A DNA stretch of 62,052 bases, the filler included, from Candidatus Omnitrophota bacterium (lineage in GTDB: Bacteria; Omnitrophota; Gorgyraeia; Zapsychrales; JBDRMG01), in assembly GCA_043812495.1 (NCBI GenBank). It is 7 parts of 7 records of this genome, joined end to end, with 100 filler letters (N's around TTAATTAATTAA, not from the genome) between each part and the next. Parts side by side here need not be neighbours in the genome. Positions count along the whole stretch, not along the records: positions 57,703 to 62,052 come from JBDRMG010000032.1; 6 more parts are not named here. One strand, written 5' to 3'. Positions within the stretch are counted from its first letter, which is position 1, and the number at the start of each line of letters is the position of its first letter. A program made the translations under genes and the position numbers. This document shows, one piece after another, positions 3 through 62,052 of this stretch. The notes beneath the pieces are model-generated. The model did no database searches. It was not told the DNA's origin and saw only the letters and a list, made by a program, of their open reading frames with translations.

Positions 3-3000
3 GATGCGAAGAATACGAGCAAGCTCTATCAAATCTGTATTTAATAGATAACCTTGAGAAGTTTTGACAGCACGGTATTCGTTTTGGCTTAGAATGTCTT
101 TTATCTGTTTGATTTTTTCAAGAGGAACATCCAGAAAAAATAGGCGAGATTCGATGATATTGAGTAGAGTGGCATTGATGGCGTAGCCTGGCCTGACCGC
201 AGGCGGTGCGGTTTTTAAAGGTGCCGTGAATTCTTCATCGAAAATTTCCTCGTCCTCTCCGATTTCAATGTGACTTAAAAGTTGTTCACATTCTGTCGCC
301 ATATTCAAATAGTCGGCCGCCTTGAGGATGCTCTCGCGTATTCTTTGATAATGGCGCGGATAATGCCAGAGGGCTTTTTCCAGGAGTTCGGATAGAGTCT
401 CTTGCGTTATCCGATCATAAATCATGACAATTTGGCGGCCGCGGTTCGCCCATTCTTTTGGCAACCGCGAAGAACGCAAAGTCATATCAATGATAAAATC
501 CGCTTGGCTGCGGTCCGGATCGATCAAATAGCGGTCATGGCGGCTGTTGTATTCGGCAAAATCAACGGCATAACGCGAGAGCGCCTCCAAGCGTTCGATC
601 TCTTCTCTTTCGACGAAAATATGGATATCTCCTTTAAATCCTTCATCGGTCAAGGGACGGCCAAACCGGCCATAGGGAAGATGGACAATGAGAACATCGT
701 ATTTCGTTTTGTAATAATCAACCATCTTTTGGATATGATCAACGCGATGTTTGTTATCCAAAAACAGAGCCACGGCATAAGCGTCTGCGCTTCCTTTGCC
801 GGTGATGGCTCCCTTAATGCCGTCCTCAAAGGCTCCTTTCGGGAAAGGTTCCATATCCCAATCAAATTCACTGGGATCAAGCATGATGATTTTGATATCC
901 TTTCCTGAAAGACCTTCCGAAAGCCTCTTGGCAAAAGCAGGACCTTGGGCCCCTGGACGGCCGGTCATGCGAATAACGATTTTCGGAGTTTTCGATTGTC
1001 GCACTAAAACTTGATTGTATATTCGGTCAAAAGCCTCTTTCGGACTTAAGGCTTCCTTATCAGAAGGATAGGGATTGCGGTAAATCGGCACAACATGAAA
1101 TCCTTTTAAAGAACAAAGATCCTGCTCTAATGCATCGCCAGGGAACATCGGCCCGACATAGTAGTCCGGTTCAAGCCCATCCCTCTGCTCCGCATCGATA
1201 ATTTCATTTAAAGCATCTTTATCTTCCTGCCCTTCTCCCATGGTCAGTTTTGCCGCCAAAGCGCGATATTTGACCAATTGCTCCTCTGTTGGAATCTTGC
1301 CTTGAGCCGAAGCTTTTTGAGACAACAGATACTCATCTCTTAATTTTTCCAACGCCCCCATGATCGCTGGATTATCACGCACAGAACCCCTGCGCCTGTT
1401 GTGGAACACCATCGCCACCCCGAATCCGAGCATCATCACTACCGCCGCCAGGAGGGAGTCGGGGGATGTGAAATCAAAGCTTGGGACGCCATGGGGCAAG
1501 AATGATACACCTAAAAGCTCACCGGATTTTCCGCTGTTGGAATCTTCTCCTGTCAATTCTCCAAGAACTTCTTCGGCGAGGCGCCGAACTTCGGGGAACC
1601 TCTCTGAGAATTTCACATCACCAACGATCTCTTTTATAAGACCCAGCGTCTTTTCATCCCGCAGCCTTAACGCGCGGATGACCTCCAAAATCTCGATTTT
1701 TCCTTCACTAAAAACTTTATCCAGAATGGCGTCCAGGGCCTCCACCATAAGTTCGGTCAGTTCCTGAAATTCTTCTTTTGTAAATCGACCTTTCCATTCA
1801 AGAATAATCCTCGGCGCCAGGGGATAATCGTACCCTCCGCATCGATCTGTGATTTTGTATTTTACGCAGAGCTTAAGTTGTTCTTTAAGAAGACGAACGT
1901 GTTCCTGATGCGTAAAACGAAAATCCGGCCGCATATCAGCTTTATGAATATTAGGATTCTCAAGATTATAATCTATAAAGTACCGGATTAAGTTCTGGCT
2001 TTTTCTGTCAAATCCCATACGTTTTAATTTTCTCGCATAGACCTGCATACTCAATATAACAAACGGATCAAAAGCTCGCAGAGCCGTCAGAGAGTAAGAG
2101 GCCATCATAGACGGCATAGCCAGTTCATTCAAAGAAAATCGGCTGGGTTGGTTGTAGCTAAAGGCATACTCAAGAAAGGCCTTAATGAGTCGTTTATAGT
2201 TTTCGGGAAATCTCAGGGCCCATTTTTCTTGGCGGGGTCTTTGATAAAGATAGGGATCGCCTTGGAGTTCATTCTTCCATGGATTGATCCGCTCGATATA
2301 ATCATCGACCATTCTTTCCTCTTCTTTGTAGCTTATGCCCTCGATCGCCTCTTCCGGGTTTGTTGTTCTTCTAAACAAGCTGTCATCCATTTGAACCTCG
2401 ATATCGAAAGATACAAGCGTAAAGCGGTTTTTCCAATTATCAGGAAGCACATCGAACTTCAGATGACCTGGTTTCATCGCAAAAATAACGCCCAAATCTT
2501 CAGAGATAGCAAATTTATTTTCTTCAGAATCTTTCGCGATGTTCCATGCGGGCTTACCCATACCATTGAAGGCAAAGACTCGTTTGGTAAAGTCAGGTTC
2601 ATAAATATACATCAGCTCAAAAACCGAACCGGCGTAACGCGCATTGATCTCTCTGGCTGCCCTTCGGTCAATGAATGATTCATTGACCGGATAAACCATG
2701 GCCCATAAGAGAAATATTTTCTTATTTTCACGGCAGACCTTTTGGAAAGCGGTTCTGTCTGTATCATCGTTAATAGATCCCTCGGGATGTTTTTTAAGGA
2801 GATCATTGACGTAGCGAATTGCATCCGTTAATCCGCCATCTTTTTCGTTTTTGTCCTGAGGGAAACGATGGACCATGCCCAGCGCCATTGCGCATCCTGC
2901 CATCACCATCCCCGCCGCCAGGAGGAAGCAGGGGGAGGCGAAGTCAAAGTTAAAAATATCGGAAAAATTGCCGACCCCAAGACAGATACCGTTTTCAAAC

Positions 3001-6000
3001 CTTGCCTTGCTTGAGGCATCAGAGCTCGGATTTGTATCTTCTGCTATTTGAATGACGCAGGCCATTAAATTCTGTCCGGGATCGACTTCGGCGTAGCTAA
3101 CCGAAAACTCATAAATAGCCGGCTGAAAAGAAGCGGCATACAGATATTCATTTCTCACAAGGCCTAGATTGATAAGGAATTCATCGAAAGCGGCATCGAC
3201 AAAGGTCAAATACTCGATAACCCGGATACAGTTACTGGCGATAAAGCCTGCGACTCTGCCATCCCTTTGACCTTCCTCGTCTGTTAACAGTTGATCGAAG
3301 TGATGCGCGCGACAAGCGGCGTGTTGTATTTTTAAACGAAGATCATCATCGGCGATGTCCCCTGGATCAATAAGCGCCATCTTGACAATGCCAATCGTGT
3401 GAGACCCGTCTCCCGCTAAGTAGTATTCTCCTTCGGGTAACCGGCTTCCCGTGACTTCATCTAAAAGACTTTGCATGTCTTTTGAAAGATTCAAAAATGG
3501 AGCAAAAAGAATTGTTTTCCCTTCCCGGGTGAAGAATGTATTTCCGCTAGCTTCAAAAACAAGCCGAATTTCCCGCCCCTCTGATTTTTGAAAAACATTG
3601 CCGCCCTTTTCGCCAGCTCTTTTTCTTTTGAATATGCTCCAGATGCCAACGCCCATTATTATCAGCACCGCCGCCAAAAGGATTTCGAGGGAGGTGAGGA
3701 GAAAATCAAGAGGAATGACAATATCAAGTCTTTTGCCATCATTTTTACTTCTTGACGAAGCGTCATTTTTCAAAGCAGCCTGCGCAACCCTAGTGATTTC
3801 CTGTTTATCCACCTCAACATAGCTGGCTTCATAAAGAAAGCGCAACTGTTTCATGAGCCCACCAATGTCAGTCTGGCACAGACGATGAAGCGAAGTAAAA
3901 ACAGGACCCATCCATTTTTCTTCTGTCTCGTCAAAATGAAACATCATGTCATGAAATCGAAGGGGATCGAAGAAAACAAAATGTCCACAATCAGAAAATA
4001 CTTTAAAGAGCTCAAGTGACCCTCGGACAATGTCCCTTCTTGCTTGAATCGCGACCGAAGACTCGCGATGGGAAACATGAAGAAGATCATGGTAATCCCT
4101 AAAACCGCCGAGCCATTGTTCGCTGTAGAATTCAAAATTAGCAACCTTCGCAAAAGCGCCAAACCTTGGAATAAGCGAAGTCTTTGAGCTGACGGTCTGA
4201 AGGAAATCGACATAACCTTCCTTAAATTGTCCCCGGGCAGCCTTAAGGGCCATTTCGTATATCGACTGATCAGCAAGCTCAATACGCGCATAATAAACCT
4301 GGGTAAATGCATCCTCGGAAACAAAACTATAGCCGACTTTAATCTTTCCTTTTAGATTGCAATCTTTCTTGCCAAACAGACGCGCGAGTGATTTAAGCAG
4401 AAATCTTCTTTGTCTGAATAATTGTTGAATATCACAAGCGTCTGGCCCAGCACTTTGGCTATACACAAGAGGATCTTGCAGATTAGTTTTCATTCTGGTT
4501 ACTTCTATTTCTAGCGGATCCCCTTGTTCATCTTTAAAATTCTTCATGATCCCCACAATCCCAATCCCCATCATCACCAACACCACCGCCAGCATGGATT
4601 CGGGAGAGGTGAAGGAGAAATCAAAGCCTAAAGGCAGAACAATTTTGTAATCTTGTTTGTCCTCGTCTTCTTCCGGATAATCGCGCATAGAATCAAAGCG
4701 GACCCTGCCTCTTTCGCCCTCTTTATGCGTCAAGAGGATTTCACTCATCATGGCATAAGCGGGAATCAAAACACCCCTTTTTCTTAGTTCACCAACAGTT
4801 GTTTGGATGATAACGACATCGTCCCGAGAGGGGTTGCTGTGGAAAACACGGGCTGCCCTTTTTGCATCTATAAAGCCGCTTTCACCCACTCCCCAGTTTG
4901 ATTGATTAACGCTCATGGTCCCGGGAAGTCCGGCATACGGCCGCATAACACTGCGGTAAACACGAACATCGTCAGGAATCAACTGGAGATCGAGCATGTC
5001 AATGATGCGAACGATTTCTTCTGATTTCTGGATGGCGCCGCGGGAAGGGATTTTTGATGTGCCGGAGGAATGATCAATGGAAATGGGAACATTGCTCTTT
5101 AACTTGACTCTTACGGCTTGATCGCCTCCAGCGTCTATGAGAAAATCGACAATCGCCTGTAAATTATCATATTCGATATCATCGGACCTTAGAACTTCCA
5201 GGATCAAAGAGCGTATAGCGCCTAAGCTGATATATTGCCCGGCGGCCCTTAGGCGCACCTCTTCTCTCAATTTGAGAATTCGTTCTCGCTCAAACAAAAG
5301 GGGCCTGATCCCCCGACCGATGCCTATCTTTTCAGCCCATAAAACAAATTGTTTAATATAAAATTCCCGCGCCTTTTGAGAATCGAACTCAACAAACAGC
5401 AAATTTTCCAAAACGCCTCTAAGACGTAATAAATCCAATCCCCATGCCTCCGATTCATCCTCTTTATTATGCGCAATAGCCATCGCCACCCCAAAGCCCA
5501 CCATCACTAAAAGCGCCCCCAGCATGGATTCGGGGGAGGTGAGGGTGAAGTCAAAACCAATAAAACCTCTAAATTCTCTAACTGAATTTTTTCTATCTAA
5601 ATCTTTCTGCGCTATAACACCCCAAGCTAAAAGATTATTCTGAGAATCGTTAACATGAATAGTGACGATGTCTTCCAGTAATCCAAACCCATGTTTCTTC
5701 AAGAATGACCTTATCTCTTGTTCATCTTGAAATACCCGCCTTTGCAAAAATTCAAATAATTCCTTAGCTTCTTGCACATTTTCTATCTTCTGCTCGGTCT
5801 TGCTTATTAACCGTTCACCCTCACTGATTCTTTCAGGCAAAGGACGTAAGACATAAGCATTTTCGCCTAATTCAGGTTTGTGGACATAGCATAACTCAAG
5901 AGCGGCCTTCCCCAAAAGCATAAGTTCGTGTTTCGCTACATCATAATTGATTCTATTTATGCTATATGATATTAAACCAAATTCATTAATGCTGATCTCA

Positions 6001-9000
6001 GGAATCTCTTGTCCAATGGCCATCTTTAAATAATTCAGAATAAACTCTAAAATTGTCAATTGCAGGGGAGCATCTTCTGCTGTTCCGCTTAATAAAAATG
6101 AATCAGGATGATGTAGGATTAATATAACCTTTCCGTTTGGCTTAAGAATTCTGCTTGCCTCTTGAAAGGCATCATTTTTCTTCATATACGATAAAGAGAA
6201 TGAAAAAATAACGCCATCAGAAAATTCATCACCAAAAGGCATTTGCTCAGCTTTTGCAACTCGATGTCGAGGATCACCTTTTTTATCAAAATAGGCATCA
6301 ACTGAATAGGTTGTCATTTGGGAATTTTTTCCCTCAATGTCTTTGGAAAGCTTGCTATCTGCCGAGCCAATATCAACGAGGACTGCTTTGGGTTTTGTTA
6401 TATGGGTGCTTACGGCGCTGAGTATAAAACTTCTAGCATGTTTGAAGGGTTCGGCATCAATGCCAAAAGAAATATTCGTGTTATGGTCCGATTTCTCTCC
6501 GTTTCTGGAATGTACCATCGCCCAAACCCCAATCCCAAGCATAAAGAGAATTGCCCCCACCATCGATTCCATGGAGGCGACGCCAAAATCAAAGAGAATC
6601 ATGTGATTTCGTAAATGCTCCCCTGGCTCATCAGAAGAGAGGATGGGATAATCTCTAAAATCACTGCCGGCGACGTGTAAATGTCCTCCGGGTTTGGCAA
6701 CTGATCTTATTTCTTTAAATAATCTCGCTTTTATTGTTTCGTCGTGCATCTGCCCTATGACACGGTTAATGACCAATAGATCGACTTCCTTAAGGAGCGC
6801 TGAAAATGCCGAGGACGGCATCTCGCATGCGATGAGCCGAATATTTCTGTTAAACTCATCGGGACGTGCATTGAATTCATCCATGACATCGAGCCGTAAT
6901 TTTACAATAATACCATTCCTGGCCTTGTTATCACTCAGAGCCGTCAAAATGTCATATCCCTTTTTAAGTCTTTGTTCGGCTCCGCGAATGACTGTTTCGT
7001 TTTTATCCATTCCTATAAATTCAAGCTCAAATTCCTCAAAATCCGATATGGATCGTTTCAGGCCGCGCCTAACCAACGTCTTCCAGCTGATGATTTCTTG
7101 TCCGAACCCGCACCCAGCTATCAGAATATTTATTTTTCGATTACTCGTTTTTCTTTTTTCATTCAGGATGCATCGGATAATATTATCGAAATCGACGACG
7201 TTATATTGCTCTCGTAAAAAATAGCTTTCCGCTTGCGTTTCTCCGACCAGCGCAAGATGCTTTAAGAAAACATCGAACATACCCAAAAGGAGTCGATCCG
7301 TGCCCTTGGCTAACATATTCAAAACCCGATCATAGTTCCCTTGATATTTCCGACAGAAGAGGTCTGTGTAACTAAAATATTTTAGAAATTGTCCCGTTAT
7401 CCTTTTGTCTATGCCCCGCTCTTCGAATTGGCGGCCAAGCGTACCTCTCATCGCTATATATATTTCTGATTCATACTTTTCTGCAAAATCCTCATACCCC
7501 AGTAAATTCGGATATAGGCTTTCATCCCTTCCCCTTTTTGTCCATTCTTCCCTAAAGGATTGAAGTGGGTCATCGGATTTTTTTACCCTCACCATCATTG
7601 CCACTCCAACCCCAAGTATCATCAACACCGCCGCCAGCAGGAATTCGGGGGAGGGGAGGGTGAGATTAAAGGGAACTGCGGGCAAGAGGAGATTGACAGC
7701 GCTCGGAGCGTATGATATGCTCTTTTTAGATATATTCCCGGAATCTAACAAATTTGACAGAAATCTTAGAGGCCAAGACGTTATGAAAGTCAATAATCTT
7801 TTAGATAGAATCGTCGCCAATCCCGATATCCAGCACGGCAAACCATGCGTCAAGGGCACGCGCACCCCTGTATATGTTGTATTGGAGGCATTGTCCTTAG
7901 GATTAACGCCGGATAAAATCAAGGAAGAATACCCTCCCCTGACAGATGAAGATATCCAAGCCTGCCTTTCTTTCGCAGCGCTCCTTGCCAACGAAGAAGA
8001 ATCCCCTTTACGGCTTAAGACATGAGACTTCTTTTGGATGCCGATGTTCCCCGTTCTTTTGGCCATAGGCTTAAGTCCGAGGGCCACGAAGTTGCCGATG
8101 TCCGAGATATATCCAAAATTCCTCTGAAAGACGAAGCAATTTATAAGCTCGCTATTGATGAGCGAAGAACCTTGATTACCCGTGATTTGGATTTCAGCAA
8201 CATTCTTCTGTATCCACCAAAACCTACCTTTGGCATAATCGTCCTTAGGACCTACCAATTGTCGACCGATGGAATGTTCGAGGTGCTTCGACAATCGCTC
8301 CAAAAGACAACAGAGGATAAGCTCCGAGGAACGCTTGTTATCGTCCAAATAGACCGTCTGCGTTTTTATCGTTAACACCGGCACGCTCATCATCCATATC
8401 ATTAAAATTCCAACTCCCGCCGCCATCCCCGCCGCGAGGAAGAAGTCGGGGGAGGTGAGGGCAAAGTCAAAAGGAATCATAAGGCTGCTTATTGAAGTCG
8501 AACCGGAACCACCCGAAGAGATTACAATATGCTTACGCGTATACTCTAAGACAACCCTCATGACATCTTGAGCATATCGTTCAGTACATCTTCCTTCGAT
8601 TGGCTCTGCAAGAAGAACATCTATTCTTTGCATCAAAGGTTCTATTTTTTGCGGTGAAAGCCTGTGAACTGCTCTGATAAGGCATATCTTGTTATTCTCT
8701 TCTAATTGATCGGGATCAATCTCACAAACAGGAGAAATTTGATAAAGCAATTGAAAGACACGTTCTGTATTTAATTCAACAGTGACTCTTGCGATATCAT
8801 CAAAGGAAATAATCGGTTCATCACTATGCAATGATATAAAACTATTGAAGAGCTTAGTAATCCATTCTTCACCATGCTTAAGTCCAAACGTAATAGGTAC
8901 CTCATTGAATAATCGGCCAGCATACGCAGGGTCTTTCTGGATAAGCTCAATGAATATCGGTTTTACCCTATTTGTGTAGAGCTCCACAGGCGCATGGGCA

Positions 9001-12000
9001 TCATAATAACAACTACAAATTTCTAAAAGGGCGGCATGGACTAATTTGATCCAAAATAGACTGCCGTCTTTTGGTTTTGAGCCATCAGAGAAATGGACAA
9101 GCTCTACCAAGGATGTATTGTTGATGATTTCCCGGCTTACCATTTGTATGATTTCATCAGGGCCATCATCAATGGTGACAAATACGATGGAAGATGCGAT
9201 GAGAAGATCTCTGTGTTCCTGCCAATCCAGATCCAATTCTTCAAAGAACTCCATGGCCGCAAAAAGTCCTCGGCGTTCGCCATCCCAGCCTCTTCTAAGG
9301 TAAAAAATGTGAACATCTTCCAGCCCACATTCTCCCGCTTTTTGGTTTAATCCTCTGTACATACCTTCATGAAGCCCCTTAGGTATCCTCCAATCAAACT
9401 GCAAGGATATTAAATGCTCAAGATAATCTCTTTTTATTTCTATGGGAAGACCAGAGGATCTGGCTGCTTTGACATATTCAATGAGTTCTTCATGATGGGC
9501 TTTAAAGTATTCTTCGCTTGCTTTAAAGGCTGCTTGGCGGGCTTGTTCTTGAGTAAGGCCTTGTGTTAATGCTTTTAATCTTTCCGCTCCCTGACAATCA
9601 AAGATATCTGAAAGGACAACGGCAGGAATGTTGTCCTCAAGAAGCCTCCAGCTAATCGTAAAGACAATGACATCAGGTTTCTTTCTTACCTCTATAGTGA
9701 ACACTTCTTGTCTTGCTTCAGGGATAAGTACCACCTCTATGGACTGATCAGAGGGAGCATGTACGAGGACTCCCTTAAGCAACTCTTCTATTCTGCCTGG
9801 TAAGAGTTCCCTTTCGTGGTGATCAAGATCAGCTATCCCCCCTGGGCCTTTGGTTATTCGAATAATCTCAAAAGAAGCGTTCCCTATTTCTCTTCTTAAC
9901 GTAACAGCAGGCTTTGGTGTTTTCTTAAAAACCAAACCAGGATAATCAAAAGTACACACTATCCCTAAAATCCCAACCCCAACCAAAAGCCCTATGATCA
10001 GCCAGCCGGAAAGGTCACCTGATAAAATGAATATATGATTTATGGGGTCTCCTTCGCCTGGTTCAGTCTTGCTTTCATTATCCTTTGCCTCAGAAGATTC
10101 TTCTTTAAATGTGAAATCAGCGGCCAGGGCTTCTTTCAGGGTGGGAAGTTTTAGAATCGGCGCATGTCCGCTAAAATAAGAATCCACCAAAGCCTTGGCC
10201 CAACGCGCCTCTAGATACCCCTGATCAATAATGACCCTATCAGTCTCCACCTGCTCAGTATTATTTGGCGATACGACTTTTATGCGGCCGGTTTGTCGAT
10301 CAATTTTGACCACACCGCCATCTGAGGAAAACCCGCTAATTTCATCCGCGGAGAATATCATCTTGTACTCAAATGAGAATCTTCCTACACATTTGGTTAA
10401 CAGCAAAATTGTGACGAACATTTGAAGAATCAAGTAATCGCGCATGGCTTCATTTTGGAACCTGGTTAATTCTGTACCGTCCGCGGCCAGAAGACGAATA
10501 TCTTCTTTTGCCAAGCGATAACCCCATGGACCAAGATAGATCGCAATCTTATGCTTTACGGCAAACACCTCTACATCTTTAAAACCGATGCGTCTTGACA
10601 CTCCTTCATATTGTTTGGAATCAAAACAGGTCGTCATGTCCCTGATGCCCGTTTCTTCTGGTTGAATCGCCATGGGTTCAGGTAAATCGAAAAGAAACTG
10701 GTTAAACTCACTTACGGGAAAGCTTGGATGCCGTACTGTCCATCTCAAACTGGTTTGGTCTTCTGCGCGCTTAACCGTAATCTCAGACAAAGAACCCTGC
10801 CATTGGTCGTGAATAATCTTCATTTGAGCCAAGAAAATGTCAAATTCCGTGTGGAAATCCTTAAGCCGCCCTTCGGCTTTTAGTTGTTCGCCGTACCATC
10901 CGAAGAACTTTTCTCTTATGTCTTCGAAAATGGCATAAGCCGTATCCTTGAGCGTGCCAAACAGGATATCAAGCATAACGACCAAGGCCGGTGTGTCGCC
11001 TTGATTTGCGAATAAATTTGCAAACTCTTTTGTTTCTCTAGACTTCTCTTGTTTAACAGCCTGAAATGTTTCTCTCGCTGAAACCATATTCCCTCTTAAG
11101 CGGAATGTTTTCTCAAGTCTTAGATCATCGAAAAATTCAGCTAATTCTTCATAATCTCGCGGCTCTAAATCAAAAGGAAAAATCAAAAAGCGCCAGAAAG
11201 TCAAATCATCATCATACGCTTGCTGATTTCCTTTTAGAACTTCGAGCAGGCCTTCGTCTGTCTTTTCCATGAATTTACTTGCGAAATATAGCATGTCTCG
11301 GTAAACGGAACTTATGGAAAAGATTGTCTCGTCCCAAGCCTGCGTCGAAAGGGAAGCGAAAGCATCTTCCGGTAAGCGCAAAAGAGCCACCTCCGGGACA
11401 AGAACAAGAGCCTTTAACCCTGTTAGGAAGGCCATCCATTGTTCTTTCATCATGTCTTCTTTTCCTCTTTGAGGGAATAAAACCTCGTATAACTGAGCGG
11501 CTTTGCTTCCCGGTTCTTCTTTGGCTTTCTTTTCCAAATTTGAGCGCAAGGTTAAATAATTGTTCTCTTCTGTACCAATGAGATCGGATTGAGCATAAGA
11601 CCCACCGAAAGTCTCCTGAAAGACATCGAAAAGAATCTCTGGAACAATGTAGGCTCGCTGACTAACCTTTTTTATGATACCGTCGAATGTTTCACGAGTT
11701 CTGGCCAACATTTGAGCCTTGCGCGCTTGGGCTTCTTCTATTTCTTTCTTGAGTGTTTCCAGGCATTCGTTTGCCTTTCTTAATTTTTCTTCCGGAGTGG
11801 TAGATTCGTTTATCTCGTTAAAGTAAGTCAAAAGACTTGTATGGGTCGCTTCCTCTTTCTGATCTCTCTCTCCTCCCAGATCCTCCCGAGTCCTCCAAAG
11901 AGAATCTAAACGAATTAAAATTCCGGTAATCTGGCCGAAACGTTTGACATCTGCGTCTAATCTATTCTCTGTTCGTTCAAAATCATCATATCGTTCAACG

Positions 12001-13262
12001 GAAACGATAGACTCGATGTCGGCGCGGAACCTTTTGGCCAATGAGCCGGGGATGCTTTGATTCAGCTGAGGTAAATCAATGTCTCTGTATTTGTTTTCAT
12101 GTTCGCTGAGTTGCAAAGAAAGCACATTGCGCGCCTTAATCCTCTTGTCTTTGATTCTGTTGAATATGGATCGGACAGAATCACGAATACTTTTCAGGCC
12201 TGCAAAGGCATACGAAAAAGCCTCTGCGTCGTGTCCGTCGCTTGAGTAGAAATGGTCTAACGGGCTATTCCGGGCCTGCCACGCCTTCCTTCGATCGGTA
12301 ATGGTACTTAATTCATCGTCTAAAATGACGCCCCATTCTTTGGCCTGGTCAATCATGGCCTGAATATTTTCCTCCATATGGTGTAACCGTTTCTCGTTTT
12401 TCTTCGCGTCTTTGGTCAGGGGCCTATCGTTAGGGAATTTTCGTTCGCAGGGCAAATAAGGATCTTGAGCTTTTTCATCCTGAAAGGTCTTCTGTCTGTG
12501 GTGCTTTTCTGTAATACGGCGGACTTCACTTACCAGCGCTTCTTCGGATAAAACCTCTCCAAAGAGTTGCCTGACCCTCTCGATGACCTCATCTGTAATC
12601 CACGCGGTCATGGACGAAAGCCCTTCGGGTCCTCGGAAATCACTCCAAAAAGTTGTTATTAGTTTTCGGCTTTCCTCTTCGGCGCGTTCACGGACGATTT
12701 TGATCTGCCGGCCGATCCAATATTGGTCGGCATCCACTTCTTCTTGTTCCTCTGAGGTCTCAACTTCTTCTTCAGGCTTGACGTGACTTTGGATGGCCAT
12801 TTCTAAGGTAAGACCCTTTTTAAGTTTAATACGTTCAATTTCCCTAAATCGCTCTGGAGATAGAATGGTCGGATCGGCAGCCTCTTTGCCTTGGAATTGA
12901 GAGAAGAAAGCTTTGGCTTGCGTGATATCTGCATTATACGCAAGCCCCCCCTTATCTTGATGCGAATCGATCGTCGCCAAATAAATCGTGTTATGATAAA
13001 GATTGATGACATAAAAAATAGATTGCTTGGGAATACGGATGTGACCGACGTTGGGAACATCGATATTCTTAAACCGCCCGATGACTTTATTTGCCACATC
13101 CTGCGTGTACGCCATATAATGGATAATCCAAATCTTTGCGGCAACAACAGGCTTTAATACCGCCGGCAAAGTATCCCAATCCTGCATGAATCGTTTGGAG
13201 GGGATAATGTCAAAGGATTGCTGCTGATTGGCCCGTACCATGGCGAGGACCGCCAGCGCCAA
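3..13262 (-). CDS. Giant modular multi-domain protein, partial at both ends (>=4420 aa), with hydrophobic repeats separating unrelated domains
   Basis: Manual reading of + strand triplets starting at positions divisible by 3 from 3 to 13260 found no TTA/CTA/TCA, so this minus frame has no stop. It runs off the window edge and into the contig end, which probably explains its absence from the ORF track. The translation contains recognisable motifs (methyltransferase, CheR-like, kinase-like). Confidence 0.93.
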   Translation of the reverse strand, partial: MALAVLAMVRANQQQSFDIIPSKRFMQDWDTLPAVLKPVVAAKIWIIHYMAYTQDVANKVIGRFKNIDVPNVGHIRIPKQSIFYVINLYHNTIYLATIDSHQDKGGLAYNADITQAKAFFSQFQGKEAADPTILSPERFREIERIKLKKGLTLEMAIQSHVKPEEEVETSEEQEEVDADQYWIGRQIKIVRERAEEESRKLITTFWSDFRGPEGLSSMTAWITDEVIERVRQLFGEVLSEEALVSEVRRITEKHHRQKTFQDEKAQDPYLPCERKFPNDRPLTKDAKKNEKRLHHMEENIQAMIDQAKEWGVILDDELSTITDRRKAWQARNSPLDHFYSSDGHDAEAFSYAFAGLKSIRDSVRSIFNRIKDKRIKARNVLSLQLSEHENKYRDIDLPQLNQSIPGSLAKRFRADIESIVSVERYDDFERTENRLDADVKRFGQITGILIRLDSLWRTREDLGGERDQKEEATHTSLLTYFNEINESTTPEEKLRKANECLETLKKEIEEAQARKAQMLARTRETFDGIIKKVSQRAYIVPEILFDVFQETFGGSYAQSDLIGTEENNYLTLRSNLEKKAKEEPGSKAAQLYEVLFPQRGKEDMMKEQWMAFLTGLKALVLVPEVALLRLPEDAFASLSTQAWDETIFSISSVYRDMLYFASKFMEKTDEGLLEVLKGNQQAYDDDLTFWRFLIFPFDLEPRDYEELAEFFDDLRLEKTFRLRGNMVSARETFQAVKQEKSRETKEFANLFANQGDTPALVVMLDILFGTLKDTAYAIFEDIREKFFGWYGEQLKAEGRLKDFHTEFDIFLAQMKIIHDQWQGSLSEITVKRAEDQTSLRWTVRHPSFPVSEFNQFLFDLPEPMAIQPEETGIRDMTTCFDSKQYEGVSRRIGFKDVEVFAVKHKIAIYLGPWGYRLAKEDIRLLAADGTELTRFQNEAMRDYLILQMFVTILLLTKCVGRFSFEYKMIFSADEISGFSSDGGVVKIDRQTGRIKVVSPNNTEQVETDRVIIDQGYLEARWAKALVDSYFSGHAPILKLPTLKEALAADFTFKEESSEAKDNESKTEPGEGDPINHIFILSGDLSGWLIIGLLVGVGILGIVCTFDYPGLVFKKTPKPAVTLRREIGNASFEIIRITKGPGGIADLDHHERELLPGRIEELLKGVLVHAPSDQSIEVVLIPEARQEVFTIEVRKKPDVIVFTISWRLLEDNIPAVVLSDIFDCQGAERLKALTQGLTQEQARQAAFKASEEYFKAHHEELIEYVKAARSSGLPIEIKRDYLEHLISLQFDWRIPKGLHEGMYRGLNQKAGECGLEDVHIFYLRRGWDGERRGLFAAMEFFEELDLDWQEHRDLLIASSIVFVTIDDGPDEIIQMVSREIINNTSLVELVHFSDGSKPKDGSLFWIKLVHAALLEICSCYYDAHAPVELYTNRVKPIFIELIQKDPAYAGRLFNEVPITFGLKHGEEWITKLFNSFISLHSDEPIISFDDIARVTVELNTERVFQLLYQISPVCEIDPDQLEENNKICLIRAVHRLSPQKIEPLMQRIDVLLAEPIEGRCTERYAQDVMRVVLEYTRKHIVISSGGSGSTSISSLMIPFDFALTSPDFFLAAGMAAGVGILMIWMMSVPVLTIKTQTVYLDDNKRSSELILCCLLERLSKHLEHSIGRQLVGPKDDYAKGRFWWIQKNVAEIQITGNQGSSLINSELINCFVFQRNFGYISDIGNFVALGLKPMAKRTGNIGIQKKSHVLSRKGDSSSLARSAAKERQAWISSSVRGGYSSLILSGVNPKDNASNTTYTGVRVPLTHGLPCWISGLATILSKRLLTFITSWPLRFLSNLLDSGNISKKSISYAPSAVNLLLPAVPFNLTLPSPEFLLAAVLMILGVGVAMMVRVKKSDDPLQSFREEWTKRGRDESLYPNLLGYEDFAEKYESEIYIAMRGTLGRQFEERGIDKRITGQFLKYFSYTDLFCRKYQGNYDRVLNMLAKGTDRLLLGMFDVFLKHLALVGETQAESYFLREQYNVVDFDNIIRCILNEKRKTSNRKINILIAGCGFGQEIISWKTLVRRGLKRSISDFEEFELEFIGMDKNETVIRGAEQRLKKGYDILTALSDNKARNGIIVKLRLDVMDEFNARPDEFNRNIRLIACEMPSSAFSALLKEVDLLVINRVIGQMHDETIKARLFKEIRSVAKPGGHLHVAGSDFRDYPILSSDEPGEHLRNHMILFDFGVASMESMVGAILFMLGIGVWAMVHSRNGEKSDHNTNISFGIDAEPFKHARSFILSAVSTHITKPKAVLVDIGSADSKLSKDIEGKNSQMTTYSVDAYFDKKGDPRHRVAKAEQMPFGDEFSDGVIFSFSLSYMKKNDAFQEASRILKPNGKVILILHHPDSFLLSGTAEDAPLQLTILEFILNYLKMAIGQEIPEISINEFGLISYSINRINYDVAKHELMLLGKAALELCYVHKPELGENAYVLRPLPERISEGERLISKTEQKIENVQEAKELFEFLQRRVFQDEQEIRSFLKKHGFGLLEDIVTIHVNDSQNNLLAWGVIAQKDLDRKNSVREFRGFIGFDFTLTSPESMLGALLVMVGFGVAMAIAHNKEDESEAWGLDLLRLRGVLENLLFVEFDSQKAREFYIKQFVLWAEKIGIGRGIRPLLFERERILKLREEVRLRAAGQYISLGAIRSLILEVLRSDDIEYDNLQAIVDFLIDAGGDQAVRVKLKSNVPISIDHSSGTSKIPSRGAIQKSEEIVRIIDMLDLQLIPDDVRVYRSVMRPYAGLPGTMSVNQSNWGVGESGFIDAKRAARVFHSNPSRDDVVIIQTTVGELRKRGVLIPAYAMMSEILLTHKEGERGRVRFDSMRDYPEEDEDKQDYKIVLPLGFDFSFTSPESMLAVVLVMMGIGIVGIMKNFKDEQGDPLEIEVTRMKTNLQDPLVYSQSAGPDACDIQQLFRQRRFLLKSLARLFGKKDCNLKGKIKVGYSFVSEDAFTQVYYARIELADQSIYEMALKAARGQFKEGYVDFLQTVSSKTSLIPRFGAFAKVANFEFYSEQWLGGFRDYHDLLHVSHRESSVAIQARRDIVRGSLELFKVFSDCGHFVFFDPLRFHDMMFHFDETEEKWMGPVFTSLHRLCQTDIGGLMKQLRFLYEASYVEVDKQEITRVAQAALKNDASSRSKNDGKRLDIVIPLDFLLTSLEILLAAVLIIMGVGIWSIFKRKRAGEKGGNVFQKSEGREIRLVFEASGNTFFTREGKTILFAPFLNLSKDMQSLLDEVTGSRLPEGEYYLAGDGSHTIGIVKMALIDPGDIADDDLRLKIQHAACRAHHFDQLLTDEEGQRDGRVAGFIASNCIRVIEYLTFVDAAFDEFLINLGLVRNEYLYAASFQPAIYEFSVSYAEVDPGQNLMACVIQIAEDTNPSSDASSKARFENGICLGVGNFSDIFNFDFASPCFLLAAGMVMAGCAMALGMVHRFPQDKNEKDGGLTDAIRYVNDLLKKHPEGSINDDTDRTAFQKVCRENKKIFLLWAMVYPVNESFIDRRAAREINARYAGSVFELMYIYEPDFTKRVFAFNGMGKPAWNIAKDSEENKFAISEDLGVIFAMKPGHLKFDVLPDNWKNRFTLVSFDIEVQMDDSLFRRTTNPEEAIEGISYKEEERMVDDYIERINPWKNELQGDPYLYQRPRQEKWALRFPENYKRLIKAFLEYAFSYNQPSRFSLNELAMPSMMASYSLTALRAFDPFVILSMQVYARKLKRMGFDRKSQNLIRYFIDYNLENPNIHKADMRPDFRFTHQEHVRLLKEQLKLCVKYKITDRCGGYDYPLAPRIILEWKGRFTKEEFQELTELMVEALDAILDKVFSEGKIEILEVIRALRLRDEKTLGLIKEIVGDVKFSERFPEVRRLAEEVLGELTGEDSNSGKSGELLGVSFLPHGVPSFDFTSPDSLLAAVVMMLGFGVAMVFHNRRRGSVRDNPAIMGALEKLRDEYLLSQKASAQGKIPTEEQLVKYRALAAKLTMGEGQEDKDALNEIIDAEQRDGLEPDYYVGPMFPGDALEQDLCSLKGFHVVPIYRNPYPSDKEALSPKEAFDRIYNQVLVRQSKTPKIVIRMTGRPGAQGPAFAKRLSEGLSGKDIKIIMLDPSEFDWDMEPFPKGAFEDGIKGAITGKGSADAYAVALFLDNKHRVDHIQKMVDYYKTKYDVLIVHLPYGRFGRPLTDEGFKGDIHIFVEREEIERLEALSRYAVDFAEYNSRHDRYLIDPDRSQADFIIDMTLRSSRLPKEWANRGRQIVMIYDRITQETLSELLEKALWHYPRHYQRIRESILKAADYLNMATECEQLLSHIEIGEDEEIFDEEFTAPLKTAPPAVRPGYAINATLLNIIESRLFFLDVPLEKIKQIKDILSQNEYRAVKTSQGYLLNTDLIELARILRI
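1410..1478 (-). repeat. Linker repeat R1: FDFTSPDSLLAAVVMMLGFGVAM
   Basis: Translated in the giant frame; followed by VFHNRRRG. Confidence 0.9.
2874..2948 (-). repeat. Linker repeat R2: FDFASPCFLLAAGMVMAGCAMALGM
   Basis: Same frame; DNA core ccgccgccaggaggaagcagggggaggcgaagtcaaag closely matches R1. Confidence 0.9.
3639..3710 (-). repeat. Linker repeat R3: LDFLLTSLEILLAAVLIIMGVGIW
   Basis: Same frame; followed by SIFKRKR. Confidence 0.85.
4545..4625 (-). repeat. Linker repeat R4: FDFSFTSPESMLAVVLVMMGIGIVGIM
   Basis: Same frame; DNA core cagcatggattcgggagaggtga nearly identical to R5. Confidence 0.9.
5481..5555 (-). repeat. Linker repeat R5: FDFTLTSPESMLGALLVMVGFGVAM
   Basis: Same frame. 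Confidence 0.9.
6516..6593 (-). repeat. Linker repeat R6: FDFGVASMESMVGAILFMLGIGVWAM
   Basis: Same frame, more diverged. Confidence 0.85.
7593..7670 (-). repeat. Linker repeat R7: FNLTLPSPEFLLAAVLMILGVGVAMM
   Basis: Same frame; followed by VRVKK. Confidence 0.9.
7693..7721 (+). promoter_or_regulatory. Sigma70-type promoter for the TA operon with a palindromic spacer (possible operator)
   Basis: TTGACA (7693-7698), 17-nt spacer, TATGCT (7716-7721) preceded by TGn; spacer contains CGCTC-G-GAGCG. Confidence 0.75.
7783..8025 (+). CDS. DUF433-family antitoxin (80 aa)
   Basis: RIVANPDIQHGKPCVKGTRTPVYVVLEALSLG...EEYPPLTDEDIQACLSFAA is the DUF433 pattern. ATG 7783 follows AGAGG and the promoter, so the track's upstream GTG start is unlikely. 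Confidence 0.92.
   Translation: MKVNNLLDRIVANPDIQHGKPCVKGTRTPVYVVLEALSLGLTPDKIKEEYPPLTDEDIQACLSFAALLANEEESPLRLKT
8022..8375 (+). CDS. DUF5615 / VapC45-like PIN-domain toxin
   Basis: MRLLLDADVP...GHEVADV...DEAIYKLA...RTLITRDLDF...GIIVLR; ATGA overlap with the DUF433 gene. Confidence 0.9.
   Translation: MRLLLDADVPRSFGHRLKSEGHEVADVRDISKIPLKDEAIYKLAIDERRTLITRDLDFSNILLYPPKPTFGIIVLRTYQLSTDGMFEVLRQSLQKTTEDKLRGTLVIVQIDRLRFYR
8388..8471 (-). repeat. Linker repeat R8: FDFALTSPDFFLAAGMAAGVGILMIWMM
   Basis: Same frame; ends 12 nt from the toxin stop codon. Confidence 0.9.
9954..10041 (-). repeat. Divergent hydrophobic linker R9: HIFILSGDLSGWLIIGLLVGVGILGIVC
   Basis: Same frame; GVGI hydrophobic helix after a polar linker, no FDF..SP motif. 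Confidence 0.6.
13239..13262 (-). repeat. Probable truncated linker at contig end (LALAVLAM)
   Basis: Hydrophobic run ending in AM like the other copies; the contig breaks here. Confidence 0.55.
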
Positions 13263-55967: not shown

Positions 55968-57547
55968 TGTGATTTTTCTTTCTCCTCAAAAAATAAAAAA
56001 TTAAAGGGGGCGAAAAAAGAAAAAGAAAAAATTTTCTTTTGGGCGATTTTGATGTTTTTAAAAAGCAGATTTAATATGAGTTTTTTAGTCTCTAAATCCA
56101 TCGTTTTCTTGTTCGGATTGTAGCCATCCAAAAACTCCTCTACCCTATTCAAATATTCTTTTGACCGCTCCCTCTCAATCTCTCTAACCTCTTGCAGAGC
56201 AATAAGTTTCTTCAGTTCCTCTTCTTCGTTTCTTAGTCCTTCGTTTTTCTGTTTGTATAATTCTTCGCTAAGCAAATTTTCCAAATAGGCGTCAGTCAAT
56301 TTTGACTGTTTTTTGAGATTATTTTCAAGCCTATTTTTGACCTTCTCAAGGTCAGTTTTTGAGATTTTCTCAAAAATTGGGAAATTTGCGTCATTTTTAA
56401 AAGTCACGTTCGTCCATCGGCTCGTTTTTAGCTTGTCGCTTTTGAGTAATGTTTCTAGGAGACCGGCAACTTCTGATTCGATCTCATTAGCTTTGACGCT
56501 CTTGTTTTTGCACCTGATAAAACTCCTGTAAGGTCCAACGCAACGATACCATCGCTTCTTAACGCCTGTGCGGTGATTAGAGATTGATGAAATACCTAAG
56601 TATTTATGATTACATTTCGCACAGTAAAGAATGCCAGATAGCGGATAATCGTTTGCCTTTTTCCTTCGTTCAATCCTTCGTGTTTTCAGTTTTTCTTGTA
56701 CTGCTTCAAAATCATCGTCTGGGATTATAGGCTGATGTTTCCCTTGCGAAATGATAATTTTATCCGGTGGGTTCTTTATGTAGCGATAACCCTTCTTCGT
56801 CTTTTGAGTCTTATCGTAATAATGCCTGTTCCAGACAAGCTTGCCTGTATAGATTCTGTTCCTTAAGATATCGCCAATTAGCTTTGTGCTAAAGATATTG
56901 CCTTTTCTGTTGCGACATCCTTTTTTCGTAAGGTATTCGGCAATAGCAAAGATACTCTTATCGCAGAGAAACATTGTATAGATGAGCTTGACAACTTTCT
57001 CTTCTTTCTCATCTGCTTCTAAAAGCTTTTTCTCTTTGTTGTAGTTATAACCGTAAGGCGCATACCTTGCCCCCTGCCAATTACCTTGCTGTACTCCTTT
57101 AACCATTCCCAGAAATACTCTCTCTGCAATCCTGTTCCTCTCAAACTCAGCGAATGAACCCAACTGCTGAAACATTAGCTTTCCAGCCGAGGTTGTGCTA
57201 TCAAACGGCTCGGTGGCTGATTTGTAGCCAATGCCTAACGAATCAAATTCCTCAAGTAACCCTAACAGATCTTTGAGCCGACGGCTCAGGCGATCCTGCT
57301 TATAGACCAGAATCAGATCAAAGTGCTTATTGCGCGCGTCAAACAAAAGCCTCTGTAGCGCAGGTCTATCCATATTGCCGCCGGAATAACCGTCATCCAT
57401 ATAAACATCTCTTCCGGACATACTGCAAAATACATCCCAACCAAAATTCTTGGCATACTGCAAAAGATAATTGCGCTGAACCTCCAGCGAAAACCCTTCC
57501 CGCGCCTGATCCTCTGTGCTGACTCTCGTATATAACGCTACTTTCAT
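55895..57547 (-). mobile_element. Large serine recombinase (integrase) of an integrated element
   Basis: YTRVSTEDQ catalytic Ser motif, DRLSR, PYGY, HQPII, zinc ribbon LSGILYCAKC...YRC, coiled coil. Confidence 0.93.
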
Positions 57548-57702
57548 TTGTTACCCGGCTTATTTTTGCTTTTTTTCTCAATTCTTTTTGCAAGAAGCCT
57601 TANNNNNNNNNNNNNNNNNNNNNNNNNNNNNNNNNNNNNNNNNNNNTTAATTAATTAANNNNNNNNNNNNNNNNNNNNNNNNNNNNNNNNNNNNNNNNNN
57701 NN

Positions 57703-60700
57703 AAAAAATTCCTGTTCAATAAGAATTGCGCAATTCGCCCAGGCGGGGATGAGCTGGACATATTGATCGCGCACCACATCAAGCGCTGAACCATCCAAAT
57801 AATCAATGGCGCGGATATTGATGGCTTTGGCTTTATTTCGCAAGGCTTTAACGAAATCCAAGGCCTCTTTTCGTGTTTCATAAAAGATGAGGCCGTTGAG
57901 CGATGATGTTGGCGCTTCAATAAGCTTGAGCTCGACTTCTGTCACGACACCAAGCGTGCCTTCGGCGCCGATGAATAAATCAATCAAGTCCATGCTGGGT
58001 TCGAGAAAATAACCGGCAGAATTGTCTTCGACGTTCGGCCGTTTAATTTCGGAAATTTGAAGTTCAATACGCTCGCCATTGGACAGTTCAATCAAAAATT
58101 CGCCTTTGGCGCTGGCAAATGTTTCTCCGCGTTTGATGTCTAGGATTTCGCCATTGGCCAAAACAACTTTTAGGCGCGTGACCCATTTGCGCGTGGAGCC
58201 GTATTTGAATCCGCGCGTGCCAAAGGCATCGGTATTGATATTGCCGCCCAAGGTCGCGGTCCGTTCGGTCGGATTCGGCGGATAGAATAATCCTTCTGAT
58301 TCGGCGGCCTTATGGATATCTCCCAAACGCGCGCCGGCCATCACGACCATACGGTATTCATCGCCTTCTTTCCTGATATCAATAATCTCATTCATCTTTT
58401 CCATGCTAATGACCCATCCGCCGAATGGCACAGCCGCGGCCACTAACCCCGTGCCCCCGCCCCTTATGGAGGCGGGAATTCCTAATCTATTGGCTTCCTT
58501 AAGAATTGCGGCGACTTCTTCGGGGGTTCTAGGTAAGAAAGCGCGCGCGGCATGGCCTCCTTGGGTGCGTGATTCATCTTTGAGATAATCTTCAAGCTCC
58601 TCGGGAGCGTCTTTGCTGGAAACATCATGAATCGCCCAATGTTCTTTCTCTGCTTCGGCCCGGGCGCGGGGGTTATTCTCTTTCCTCGAACCGCCCGCGA
58701 ACACCGCCAGAAGACCAAAACCGAGAAGACCTACCAGAAGGACTATCGGATTTAACGGATCCGCCAAAAGATAAATGCCGAGGGGAGCGTCATTCTCGTC
58801 TTCTGGCTTTATTCTCCTTGAGCTTTGACATCCGATTTGTGTTATATCTTTAAAAGAACATGTTGTTCTAGAATAAACAAATACTCTTTTTATCCATTTT
58901 CTTGGAATATCGCAGGCGATGTCGATTTCAATTCCTTGATCATAAGTCACGGCCTCAGAAGGTATTTCGGCACGTTCCGCTTCAATAAGAACGCAGTAGA
59001 AATCCGTTCTTACGGGAATGAAGTCTATCGATTTCATAAACGACCCGGATGCAGCAACAGCATGACCCGGCTCATAAGCAAAATGATGCGTGGCACATTC
59101 TGTATCTTTTAACTTCAAGCCTCTTTTTATAATTTTCTCAATAGAAATTTTTCTTAAACGCATAGCTCGATATATAAATTTATTAAGCTTTAAGTCCCTC
59201 CCAATATTTTCGTTGATTTGCGTTATGGCTTTTACGGCTAAGGTCCAATCCAATTGATCAGTATTGTCAAATTTACTTTCGCGCAATATAGACTCGATAT
59301 TACTCTTTTCATTGCTTCCTTTCTTCTTCGCCCCGACCCGGGCGCGGGGGTTATTCTTTTTCCGCGAACCGCCCGCGAACACCGCCAGAAGACTGAAACC
59401 GAGAAGACCGGCAAGGGTGAAGAGTAAACTCGGAAGGTCGGCCGGCGAGATGCCGAAAAGCGTATTACCTGATTCCGAGGTCATGGAAGGCCCTTGGTCT
59501 TTATCTTGAAAACTTCTAATAGCGGCCATTCGTTCTTGTGCCAATTGGATGGCCTGATCATAACTTCTGACTTCATCGCGGTTCCGGAACGTCGCTTCAC
59601 GGCGTTTCTCGTACAATTCATCGATGGCTGACTGCAAAATATCCAGCGACGGCCGGCCTTCGAGAGGGTCATTGCCGAATGTAAGCGGAAGATCGCCTTT
59701 CAAAAATCTTTCCGCCTGCGGCCGGTAAGGCTTGCCGTCTGGTGATTCGGCAAATTGACGGATCCATTCCTCGGCCATTTGTTCTCCCTTCTTCGGGTCT
59801 TTCCCTAAATCTTCGGCCAAATAACGAAGACCCCGGATCAATCCGTGAAAGGCCACGCTTGGATTAGAGATACAGACAGGGACTTGCGCGCAGCGGGGTT
59901 TGACAAATGCGGCGGGTCGTGTCATCATTCCGTCGGGGATAATGGGCTCTATGGTATAAAGCCGAACGAGGGATTGGATAAAGGCGGGGATATCAACGCC
60001 TGATTTTGTCCGTCTTATGGTGGTTATCCGGATGCGAGGCGGGTCCCGGGAATTCCTTTTGAGCACAAAATCTCCGCTGTTGACAAAAACACCGGCCATC
60101 GTTGTTCCGCCGTCTTTATCAGGCTCATAATGATAAACAATAGCAGCCGCCATTTCGGCCAAGACAGGGGGGATATCCTCTTTGGGCAGAGGAATGAACC
60201 GGCTGACCCCGGACTCGCGGTCCGATTCCCAGCGGCGAAGCACTCCCTGGGCGAAGTTCAACTCCTCATGCCCGCGGAGAAATTCGCTGACAACAATGGG
60301 AAAACTCATCCATTGATCGCCTTTTGTAATCCCGAGCCCGAACGTCCGCTCACCATGTGGTTCCGGAATAAACCGTCTTCTGCCCGATTCCCAATACCTC
60401 TTAAAACAACGCGCGTCATGAGCGACCGCCGCAACATGGCTTTTTTCGATGCTCAGCGGAAATGATAACGCAAAATCTTCACCTCCCAAAAGAAGCTTAT
60501 AAATGATGGCAAACCGCCCGAACTTAAGTGGTTGCAGTTCGGCCTGGGAGTCCGTTTTTCTGAAAATCTCAAGGAGCCACTTCTCTAAACGTTTTACTTC
60601 ATGCAGGCTTAGCCTGTCTTGAGAAGAGATCGGCGGATAATCAAAAGAAACAATGACATTATCATGAGTCCATCTGTATTCATCATCCGTGACTTTGATG

Positions 60701-62052
60701 CCGCCAATTAAAAATAGCATACTACTAAACAGGGTCGCTGGGCCAATCTGACCGCTGATGGCTGACAGCTGATGGCTCAACAGGCCCAGCGGCCCGAGGA
60801 TGATGACAATCAAACCAAAAGACGCAGCAAAAATAGGGACGTTCTTCAGCCACCGATAAAGGGTGTCCCCTTTAACATATGCTTGGGGACACCCATAGGT
60901 TCCAGCTGAAGAACGTCCCTGATTAATATACGACATTACCTGCCTCGCCTTACGGCGGGCAAGGCGGACGACATTACTACCTACTACATTACGACCTGGC
61001 CCCCGCTCTTTCTTTTGACTATGTGATTTCTTGATGATCAAAAGCACCACGGCCCCAATCATCAACAAGCCAATCAAAACAACCAAGTATTCATAGCCGG
61101 TAGTCGCTTGAATTGTTTGCCAAATACTGGACATATTAAAAGGCGCGAATGGTCCAATAGTGCAGTCGAAATCTTCAAATGGATCTTCATCTAATCCAAC
61201 CTCAGTCATATCTCTAGGGCGTCTAACGAATCGATGTCTCTTTATTTTTTCTATGGCCTCTCTTGCCAATGAATCATTCTCAGCTCCTTTGACATTCATT
61301 GCCTTATCTTTAGTCGCAATACCATGTAATATTGTATTTGATAAGGCATCCGCCACAGTTTCTAGCTTACTCAATCTGACAGTTTGACCACCGTCGGTTG
61401 ACCATAAACACCAACCCAGAGGAATCAGCCGATGATTTACCCCATTAAAGTATTCTCTATTTTTATACACCTCTATTGAGAAGACTGAAATTCTAGATTT
61501 CCTTAGTAAATCATCCACCTTTTCATAAGGAACCGGACTAATCCCGCTCAACTGCCAGATCTGCCTGAGACTTTTTGCTGCCGCTTTCATCTTATTCCAA
61601 CTGGCTCCTTTCTCTGACCTTGCTTTACTTAGAAGATCTCTGATCTGATCTAAAACTCTTAATATTCCTTTCGCACCAAATGAACCTCCCTGCAGCAAGA
61701 CTGCAGGGTATCTTTTTTTAGAAGAATCTTGAGGTTCATTCTTCGAAGCCGAATACCTAACTCTACTACGCTCAAAAATTTCACTTCGTTTCATGTTTGA
61801 GCTTCGTAGAGTTCTACTTGCGCCTTTCCGCCCAAAATCTTTGATTTTGGGCGAGATCTCGCCCTGCTTTGCAGGGCGGACATCCCCGTGGCAAGCCACG
61901 GGGTATTCGGCGAAGTAGAATAATACATCCAAAACCTCATGACTAATCACACCTTTAGCAACAGAGAGATTGTAACTTATTGTATGGATATCTACACCTA
62001 TCCTTCCAGCCGCTTCTTCTCTGTATCCATATATTTTCAAACGACCTTCCCC
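57703..62052 (-). CDS. Second giant modular protein fragment (>=1450 aa, open at both ends) with hydrophobic linkers, an ART-like domain and an FAD-linked oxidase domain
   Basis: The 1461-aa track ORF is also open upstream of its TTG to the window edge, and its stop comes from the spacer. FAD_binding_4 motifs RGGGTGL, TLGGNINT, IGAEGTLGVVT. Confidence 0.9.
58659..58731 (-). repeat. 73-bp direct repeat copy 1 (GLLGFGLLAVFAGGSRKENNPRAR)
   Basis: 69/73 nt identical to 59337-59409. Confidence 0.95.
59337..59409 (-). repeat. 73-bp direct repeat copy 2 (GLLGFSLLAVFAGGSRKKNNPRAR)
   Basis: 69/73 nt identical to 58659-58731; offset 678 nt = 226 codons. Confidence 0.95.

Follow-up and report, generated by a model that had tools for sequence, protein, structure and literature searches.

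Contig C32 of this Omnitrophota genome is read from end to end by one open frame in which hydrophobic linkers separate different domains, which raises the question of what gene it belongs to and what the linkers do in its product. The analysed window is a stretch of 62,052 nucleotides composed of seven contigs with N-padded spacers between them, and its positions 57703-62052 are the whole of contig C32 (4,350 nt).

The open frame of contig C32 and its continuation

The sequence-only reading had described a frame of at least 1450 codons open at both ends, and the minus strand of C32 reads exactly so. The frame is protein-coding: aa 1171-1306 match the Pfam profile FAD_binding_4 (E 4.7e-33), and dN/dS against a paralogous copy on contig C44 is 0.26 (bootstrap 0.18-0.37, over 413 codons). 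The three hydrophobic linkers followed by basic residues that had been quoted are all present in the translation, and their helices each have no K/R before and five to six K/R after them. The features are collected in Table 1.

Table 1. Features of contig C32 and of contig 1, in window positions; helices were called by hydropathy alone.
Feature	Position	Strand	Remarks
Internal piece of giant multi-enzyme gene, whole contig C32	57703..62052	-	1,450 stop-free codons
Palindromic repeat element, read through in frame, aa 44-125	61679..61923	.	99%-identical copies elsewhere
Module, aa 126-320, GC 0.41	61093..61677	-	no convincing relative
Three-segment membrane linker	60691..61089	-	aa 322-340 (helix 61033-61089), aa 407-425 (charge bias reversed), weak aa 436-454; one part shares 94% DNA identity with a C20 linker
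Mobile soluble module, aa 445-860	59473..60720	-	duplicated on C44, 84% aa, dN/dS 0.26
Single-helix linker, first twin, GC about 0.58	59324..59470	-	helix aa 876-894 (59371-59427); 86-nt repeat copy 59324-59409
Module with predicted ADP-ribosyltransferase fold, aa 935-1080, GC 0.38	58813..59250	-	closest solved fold KptA/Tpt1
Single-helix linker, second twin, GC about 0.56	58646..58795	-	helix aa 1103-1121 (58690-58746); 86-nt repeat copy 58646-58731
GlcD-like FAD-linked oxidase, N-terminal part, aa 1151-1450	57703..58602	-	C-terminal part on C52
141-nt exact overlap with end of contig C52	57703..57843	.	at its other join C52 shares 141 nt with contig 1
Contig 1 (C19), downstream piece of same gene	3..13262	-	4,420 codons; own local single-helix linker family

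Exact 141-nt end overlaps gave the contig order C32, C52, C19 (contig 1) and C35, of which C52 lies outside the window. The joined sequence is 27,949 nt long and reads as 9,316 codons with no stop, and each overlapping 141-mer was found in its two partner contigs only. The C32-C52 join is independently supported because a GlcD-like oxidase continues over it: the GlcD profile is split between C32 (positions 3-139) and C52 (positions 204-410), and the rebuilt oxidase aligns end to end with a homologue in the relative genome G023. The basis of the C52-C19 and C19-C35 joins is the overlaps and the open frame alone. On the upstream side, contig C20 matches the first 307 nt of C32 with three differences, and this match passes through the repeat element. 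None of the public sequencing runs bridged a contig end. The earlier choice between another piece of the same giant gene and a paralogous array was narrowed by the exact overlaps and the single frame, which link C32 through C52 to contig 1 as the same gene and not as a second one. In total, 13 stretches of giant open frame were counted in the genome, with 93,339 codons together and 25,094 in the longest; some of them could not be linked to the rest. We are confident that C32 comes from inside the one Archaeovorin-type giant gene of this genome and that its frame continues into contig 1.

Copies of the palindromic element (~245 nt, 99%) were observed at both ends of C20 and at the ends of contigs C39 and C63, with weaker copies elsewhere. 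Copies inside giant frames are always read through in the same frame, and the copy at the end of contig C39 meets a stop. Two frame breaks were noted in otherwise giant frames, at about 33,579-33,670 of C20 and about 17,005-17,168 of C63, the latter within a hairpin repeat; they may be genuine breaks, programmed shifts or errors of assembly. At the end of C35 (L017 5840-5951) the joined frame enters a repeated element resembling, by eye, the start of an IS200-type transposase, further copies of which lie at the ends of C43 and C28. On contig C44 (L007), a stretch 87% identical to window 59468-60914 leads into a different module; C44 is either a second copy inside the gene or derived from a related strain. 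The GlcD-like oxidase on C52 (L016) has two residues fewer between its likely metal-binding histidines than the G023 homologue, and no free-standing copy of this oxidase was found in the genome. A 551-codon gene at window positions 55895-57550, serine-recombinase-like by eye, lies at the end of contig C31 and adjoins miaB; it is unrelated to C32 because a contig spacer lies between them.

Relation to described giant proteins of Omnitrophota

In the main text of a 2023 preprint (10.1101/2023.11.21.568195), Archaeovorin-type genes are described as occurring once per genome and encoding an N-terminal C39 peptidase and many membrane helices; most members have a divergent SecA DEAD domain inside the giant protein, single ORFs have 30,000 codons or more, and pilZ and sugar transporters lie downstream. 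The gene described here is like this type in its C39 peptidase, its helices, its glycosyltransferase, methyltransferase, glycoside hydrolase, TPR, HEAT and peptidase domains, and the secretion-like (type II) locus upstream. The Pfam domains of the giant pieces include GT5, GT1, GH77, Methyltransf_11, kinase, HPr, arginase, TPR, HEAT_2, M23 and M50, with neither dockerin nor NUDIX listed. The genome's only C39 peptidase lies at aa 188-311 of the frame of C45, the piece with the N-terminal start, which is not physically joined to C32. Of 41 genomes that were searched, 35 have a start homologous to that of C45, frequently within a frame of 10,000-86,000 codons, and the Cys, His and Asp of the peptidase are kept in all eight aligned genomes. 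The leader ahead of the domain is signal-peptide-like by eye. Altogether, 223 helices were called by hydropathy in the 93,339 aa of the giant pieces. The genes upstream of the giants in G007, G001 and G011 map in order to C22, a secretin-containing locus; the 111-nt overlap between C22 and C45 is a shared repeat. A SecA DEAD domain, which most Archaeovorin-type proteins have, was not seen in the giant pieces as assembled, the gene being fragmented and the genome 90% complete. The two SecA DEAD matches of the genome are both in ordinary-length frames (C10 and C55), and 14 PilZ matches are scattered over the genome.

The second SecA (C55 1-2051) is 63% identical to the C10 copy and runs over two frames; C55 is possibly a foreign contig in the bin. 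FlgD/Por_Secre_tail-like domains were seen inside the giant frames of C53 and C65. A 2,177-codon gene that looks secreted is found on contig C39 at 3423-9953; it faces one exit of the repeat element in convergent orientation and could flank the end of the giant gene. Among the 120 MiaB matches listed, the relatives with a label were five Omnitrophota, five Calditrichota and two given simply as bacteria, and one homologue of a module is named Omnitrophota.

The gene is also like the 'multi-enzyme metabolic cluster' class of long Omnitrophota proteins of Nielsen and Lui (10.64898/2026.06.07.730766), as the main text presents it, in that many distinct Pfam domains tile a membrane-threaded chain and the proteins are sequence-unique. 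Their most helix-rich example has one helix per about 370 residues; the joined frame has 22 strong helices in 9,316 codons, or about one per 420. Giant, helix-rich, multi-enzyme genes of Omnitrophota and the idea of self-cleavage are thus already in print: the main text of West-Roberts et al. (10.1101/2023.11.21.568195) proposes self-cleavage, notes that topology is unreliable and leaves whole or cut as an open question. The same text has no 'linker', 'polyprotein' or 'ADP-ribos' and names no cut sites, and the main text of 10.64898/2026.06.07.730766 has no 'linker', 'cleav', 'motif', 'polyprotein' or 'positive-inside'. Nielsen and Lui treat the helices there as ordinary topology, whereas a same-direction bias was found here. 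Local linker families, a charge bias without a partner helix, soluble-motif-flanked versions of the modules and a module of predicted ADP-ribosyltransferase (ART) fold between twin linkers were not found in either main text.

Charge orientation and families of the linkers

According to the positive-inside rule, the K/R-rich flank of a membrane helix stays inside. Among the isolated helices of the joined frame (n=16), the K/R excess was on the C-side in 15 and on the N-side in none, with one tie, and N-side K/R were absent in 12. The control, ordinary genes of the genome, gave C-side and N-side excess at 10:10 of 22. The p value of 6e-5 for the joined frame is overstated because linkers within a family are related. 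The bias was weaker in the other giant pieces of the genome (36:18 of 59) and reached 39:16 of 62 (p 0.003) in the 85,816-codon frame of G007. It was non-significant in eight of nine relatives' frames (e.g., G011 5:6, G033 8:5, G009 7:4), and in most relatives the orientation bias is weak or absent.

No partner helix was found upstream of the linker helices: the best 19-mer there had a median hydropathy of 0.31 (19 linkers), compared with 0.30 in soluble and 1.67 in polytopic reference proteins. K/R-free runs around the helices have a median of 44 aa and usually include prolines and, ahead of the helix, a short hydrophobic strand. Helices in clusters of two are frequent (25 of 135 at threshold 1.6). 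A normal polytopic chain, its modules lying by turns inside and outside, would account for such paired linkers, for the reversed charge bias of the middle segment of the first linker and for the SP+TM or TM-only layouts predicted in the main text of 10.64898/2026.06.07.730766. However, because runs of single helices share the same bias (15 of 16) and have no partner helix, a plain alternating topology is a poor fit. It would also put cofactor-dependent modules on successive sides of single helices, and we consider it very improbable.

Linker similarity falls with distance along the gene (rho -0.52, 0 of 2,000 permutations), and the linkers group by sequence into local families. The second and third linkers of C32 have in common an 86-nt direct repeat, 90% identical, at a distance of 678 nt. 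Both observations would suit linkers that are mainly DNA exchange cassettes, their peptide being a tolerated leftover of one ancestral anchor, as would the parting of C44 and C32 inside a linker after a shared module and the gene's tolerance of in-frame repeat elements. Against this stand the same design in families without clear sequence likeness and a linker dN/dS of 0.25 versus C44 and 0.35 between the twins (few codons), which make this reading even less probable than an alternating chain.

No motif common to all linker families was found; with a 20-linker profile, the best outside giant-gene match scored 9.6 bits and the best control 6.8. A motif trained on G007 linkers transferred weakly (p 0.01) and scores the joined-frame linkers low. 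In the G007 linkers at about 160,000-417,500 of its C1 (L078-L092), an acidic stretch is followed by Leu-x-(Ala/Cys)-(Phe/Leu)-(Val/Leu)-Pro, a motif sharper than in the genome of C32.

A motif, one helix and a basic cluster in N-out/C-in orientation also make up the PEP-CTERM and GlyGly-CTERM sorting signals. These signals are C-terminal and conserved, whereas the linkers here are all internal and without one shared motif, and identity with them was rejected on the C-terminal position. No match to PF09721 or PF01694 (exosortase/rhombosortase) was found in the 90% complete genome.

Modules between the linkers and the fate of the chain

Each of nine relatives' giant frames covers 0-7% of the joined frame, and six cover 0%; several of these frames are partial and two were picked for having matches. 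The modules of the joined frame with homologues elsewhere all start 11-30 aa after a helix (5/5), and four of the five end 26-60 aa before the next one. The linkers have a GC of 0.56-0.58 and the module between the twins 0.38. The aa 445-860 module gave 58 matches among 1.84 billion representatives, the top two being its own protein and the C44 paralogue. Elsewhere it is fused to Methyltransf_28, which 13 of the 29 scanned matches carry, or forms part of other long proteins. On C44 a linker of the same family comes next, and a different module after it; in G009 the aa 445-860 module is bracketed by Ser-Ser-Pro motifs (106 seen vs 7.9 expected) and preceded by more than 2,000 aa of helix-free sequence. 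In general, the modules elsewhere have no flanking helices, and some have short soluble motifs instead. The occurrence of the same modules between soluble motifs in other lineages suggests that the linker marks a boundary and not the module's topology. Shared modules were near the downstream versus the upstream helix in 14 vs 16 of 29 cases (p 0.72), and because of this equal closeness, homology assigns the anchor to neither neighbouring module. Ordinary TM segments of a conserved fixed-architecture protein, which the sequence-only reading had named as its counter-case, were not what we found, as the modules are shuffled among relatives. Probably, enzyme modules that are soluble and of mixed origin have been inserted between short linker cassettes, which would be copied locally along the gene and serve as exchange points.

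The module between the twin linkers is predicted to have an ADP-ribosyltransferase fold. The predicted structure of aa 935-1080 (pLDDT 84, pTM 0.79) shows the split beta-sheet of the NAD-binding ART fold, and the structure search gave KptA/Tpt1 as the best matches, then PltA, TreX and others. Compared with KptA/Tpt1 and bacterial ART toxin domains, the module is 10-20% identical, without a profile match, and lacks a conserved catalytic Glu and the Tpt1 RNA-binding lobe. In the alignment (n=14), Arg is present in 12 of 14, with no conserved Ser-x-Ser or catalytic Glu column; an R-S-E ART toxin was rejected, as only the Arg is kept. Homologues were found in long ORFs only, and 0 of 12 in other genomes have a segment of hydropathy >=2.0 within 150 aa. 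The literature search gave no paper joining Omnitrophota with ADP-ribosyltransferase.

The recognised modules have FAD or SAM or, by fold, NAD as cofactors, all of which are cytoplasmic. The linkers may be punctuation between modules, each with a polar spacer and a K/R-free stretch followed by a single membrane helix and a basic cluster, in a putative N-out/C-in orientation. The precursor would be cut in or just before each linker, and the products would be many small enzymes tethered to the membrane, their modules facing the cytoplasm. Cutting into tethered units is the reading we favour because an uncut chain cannot fit successive single helices all pointing the same way; judged from the sequence pattern, its chance is a little short of even. 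Real membrane insertion, cleavage, the protease and the side where the modules end up are what we infer, beside the observed join, module shuffling, local linker families, charge bias and absence of a partner helix. The C39 domain may sit outside the cell, the wrong side for cutting before insertion, because of its signal-peptide-like leader.

In MARTX toxins and viral polyproteins, a single precursor carries exchangeable enzyme modules and is cleaved into units. The C32 gene is like them as a modular precursor, whose cutting is here only inferred, and unlike them in the membrane anchors between its modules and its mostly metabolic cargo. No RTX repeats or MARTX-type cysteine-protease domain were seen in Pfam scans of the chain.

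The whole chain could instead stay uncut along the inner membrane face, with re-entrant anchors or with alternate helices left out, so that all modules would remain cytoplasmic. Helices left out of the membrane are known as topological frustration in the E. coli literature. The long K/R-free runs with their prolines and short hydrophobic pre-helix strand agree with this arrangement, as does the lack of a shared cleavage motif among the linkers. However, the segment before the helix does not exceed soluble sequence in hydrophobicity and has 0-5 acidic residues, and the near-absence of N-side K/R is the expectation for an outside-facing end. We regard an uncut chain as rather unlikely.

A further reading has the polyprotein exported and cut as a delivered effector, its anchored units being set in a prey membrane with the enzymes facing the prey cytoplasm. 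Uniformly oriented anchor cassettes would then yield well over a hundred single-pass units, like a multi-effector toxin directed against microbes, with a cargo of sugar metabolism, methylation, kinases and the ART-fold module. The membrane cassettes would then be interchangeable, as punctuation, with the short soluble motifs that other lineages have. The restriction of the ART-fold module to long ORFs, the synteny of the secretin locus on C22 with loci upstream of relatives' giant genes, and the reported three-fold rise of the V. archaeovorus giant protein on attachment (PMC10066038) are in its favour. Nevertheless, KptA/Tpt1, the closest fold, is a housekeeping-type enzyme, no catalytic Glu is conserved, the modules of the chain match no Pfam or PADLOC toxin family, and the named modules are mostly metabolic or regulatory. 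Delivery as an effector is therefore improbable.

The tethered-unit reading thus concerns a known gene class, to which C32 adds a testable variant of its punctuation. It offers candidate cut points for Omnitrophota giant proteins, which are missing from the main text of the 2023 preprint (10.1101/2023.11.21.568195). Single helices of the same direction, set between soluble modules, provide physical grounds for expecting the chain to be cut, and from their positions the sites of new N-termini can be predicted. One module of 180 residues with its twin linkers would be a ready small test construct. Inside/outside calls for these proteins assume alternating helices, so they may be wrong for half of the modules.
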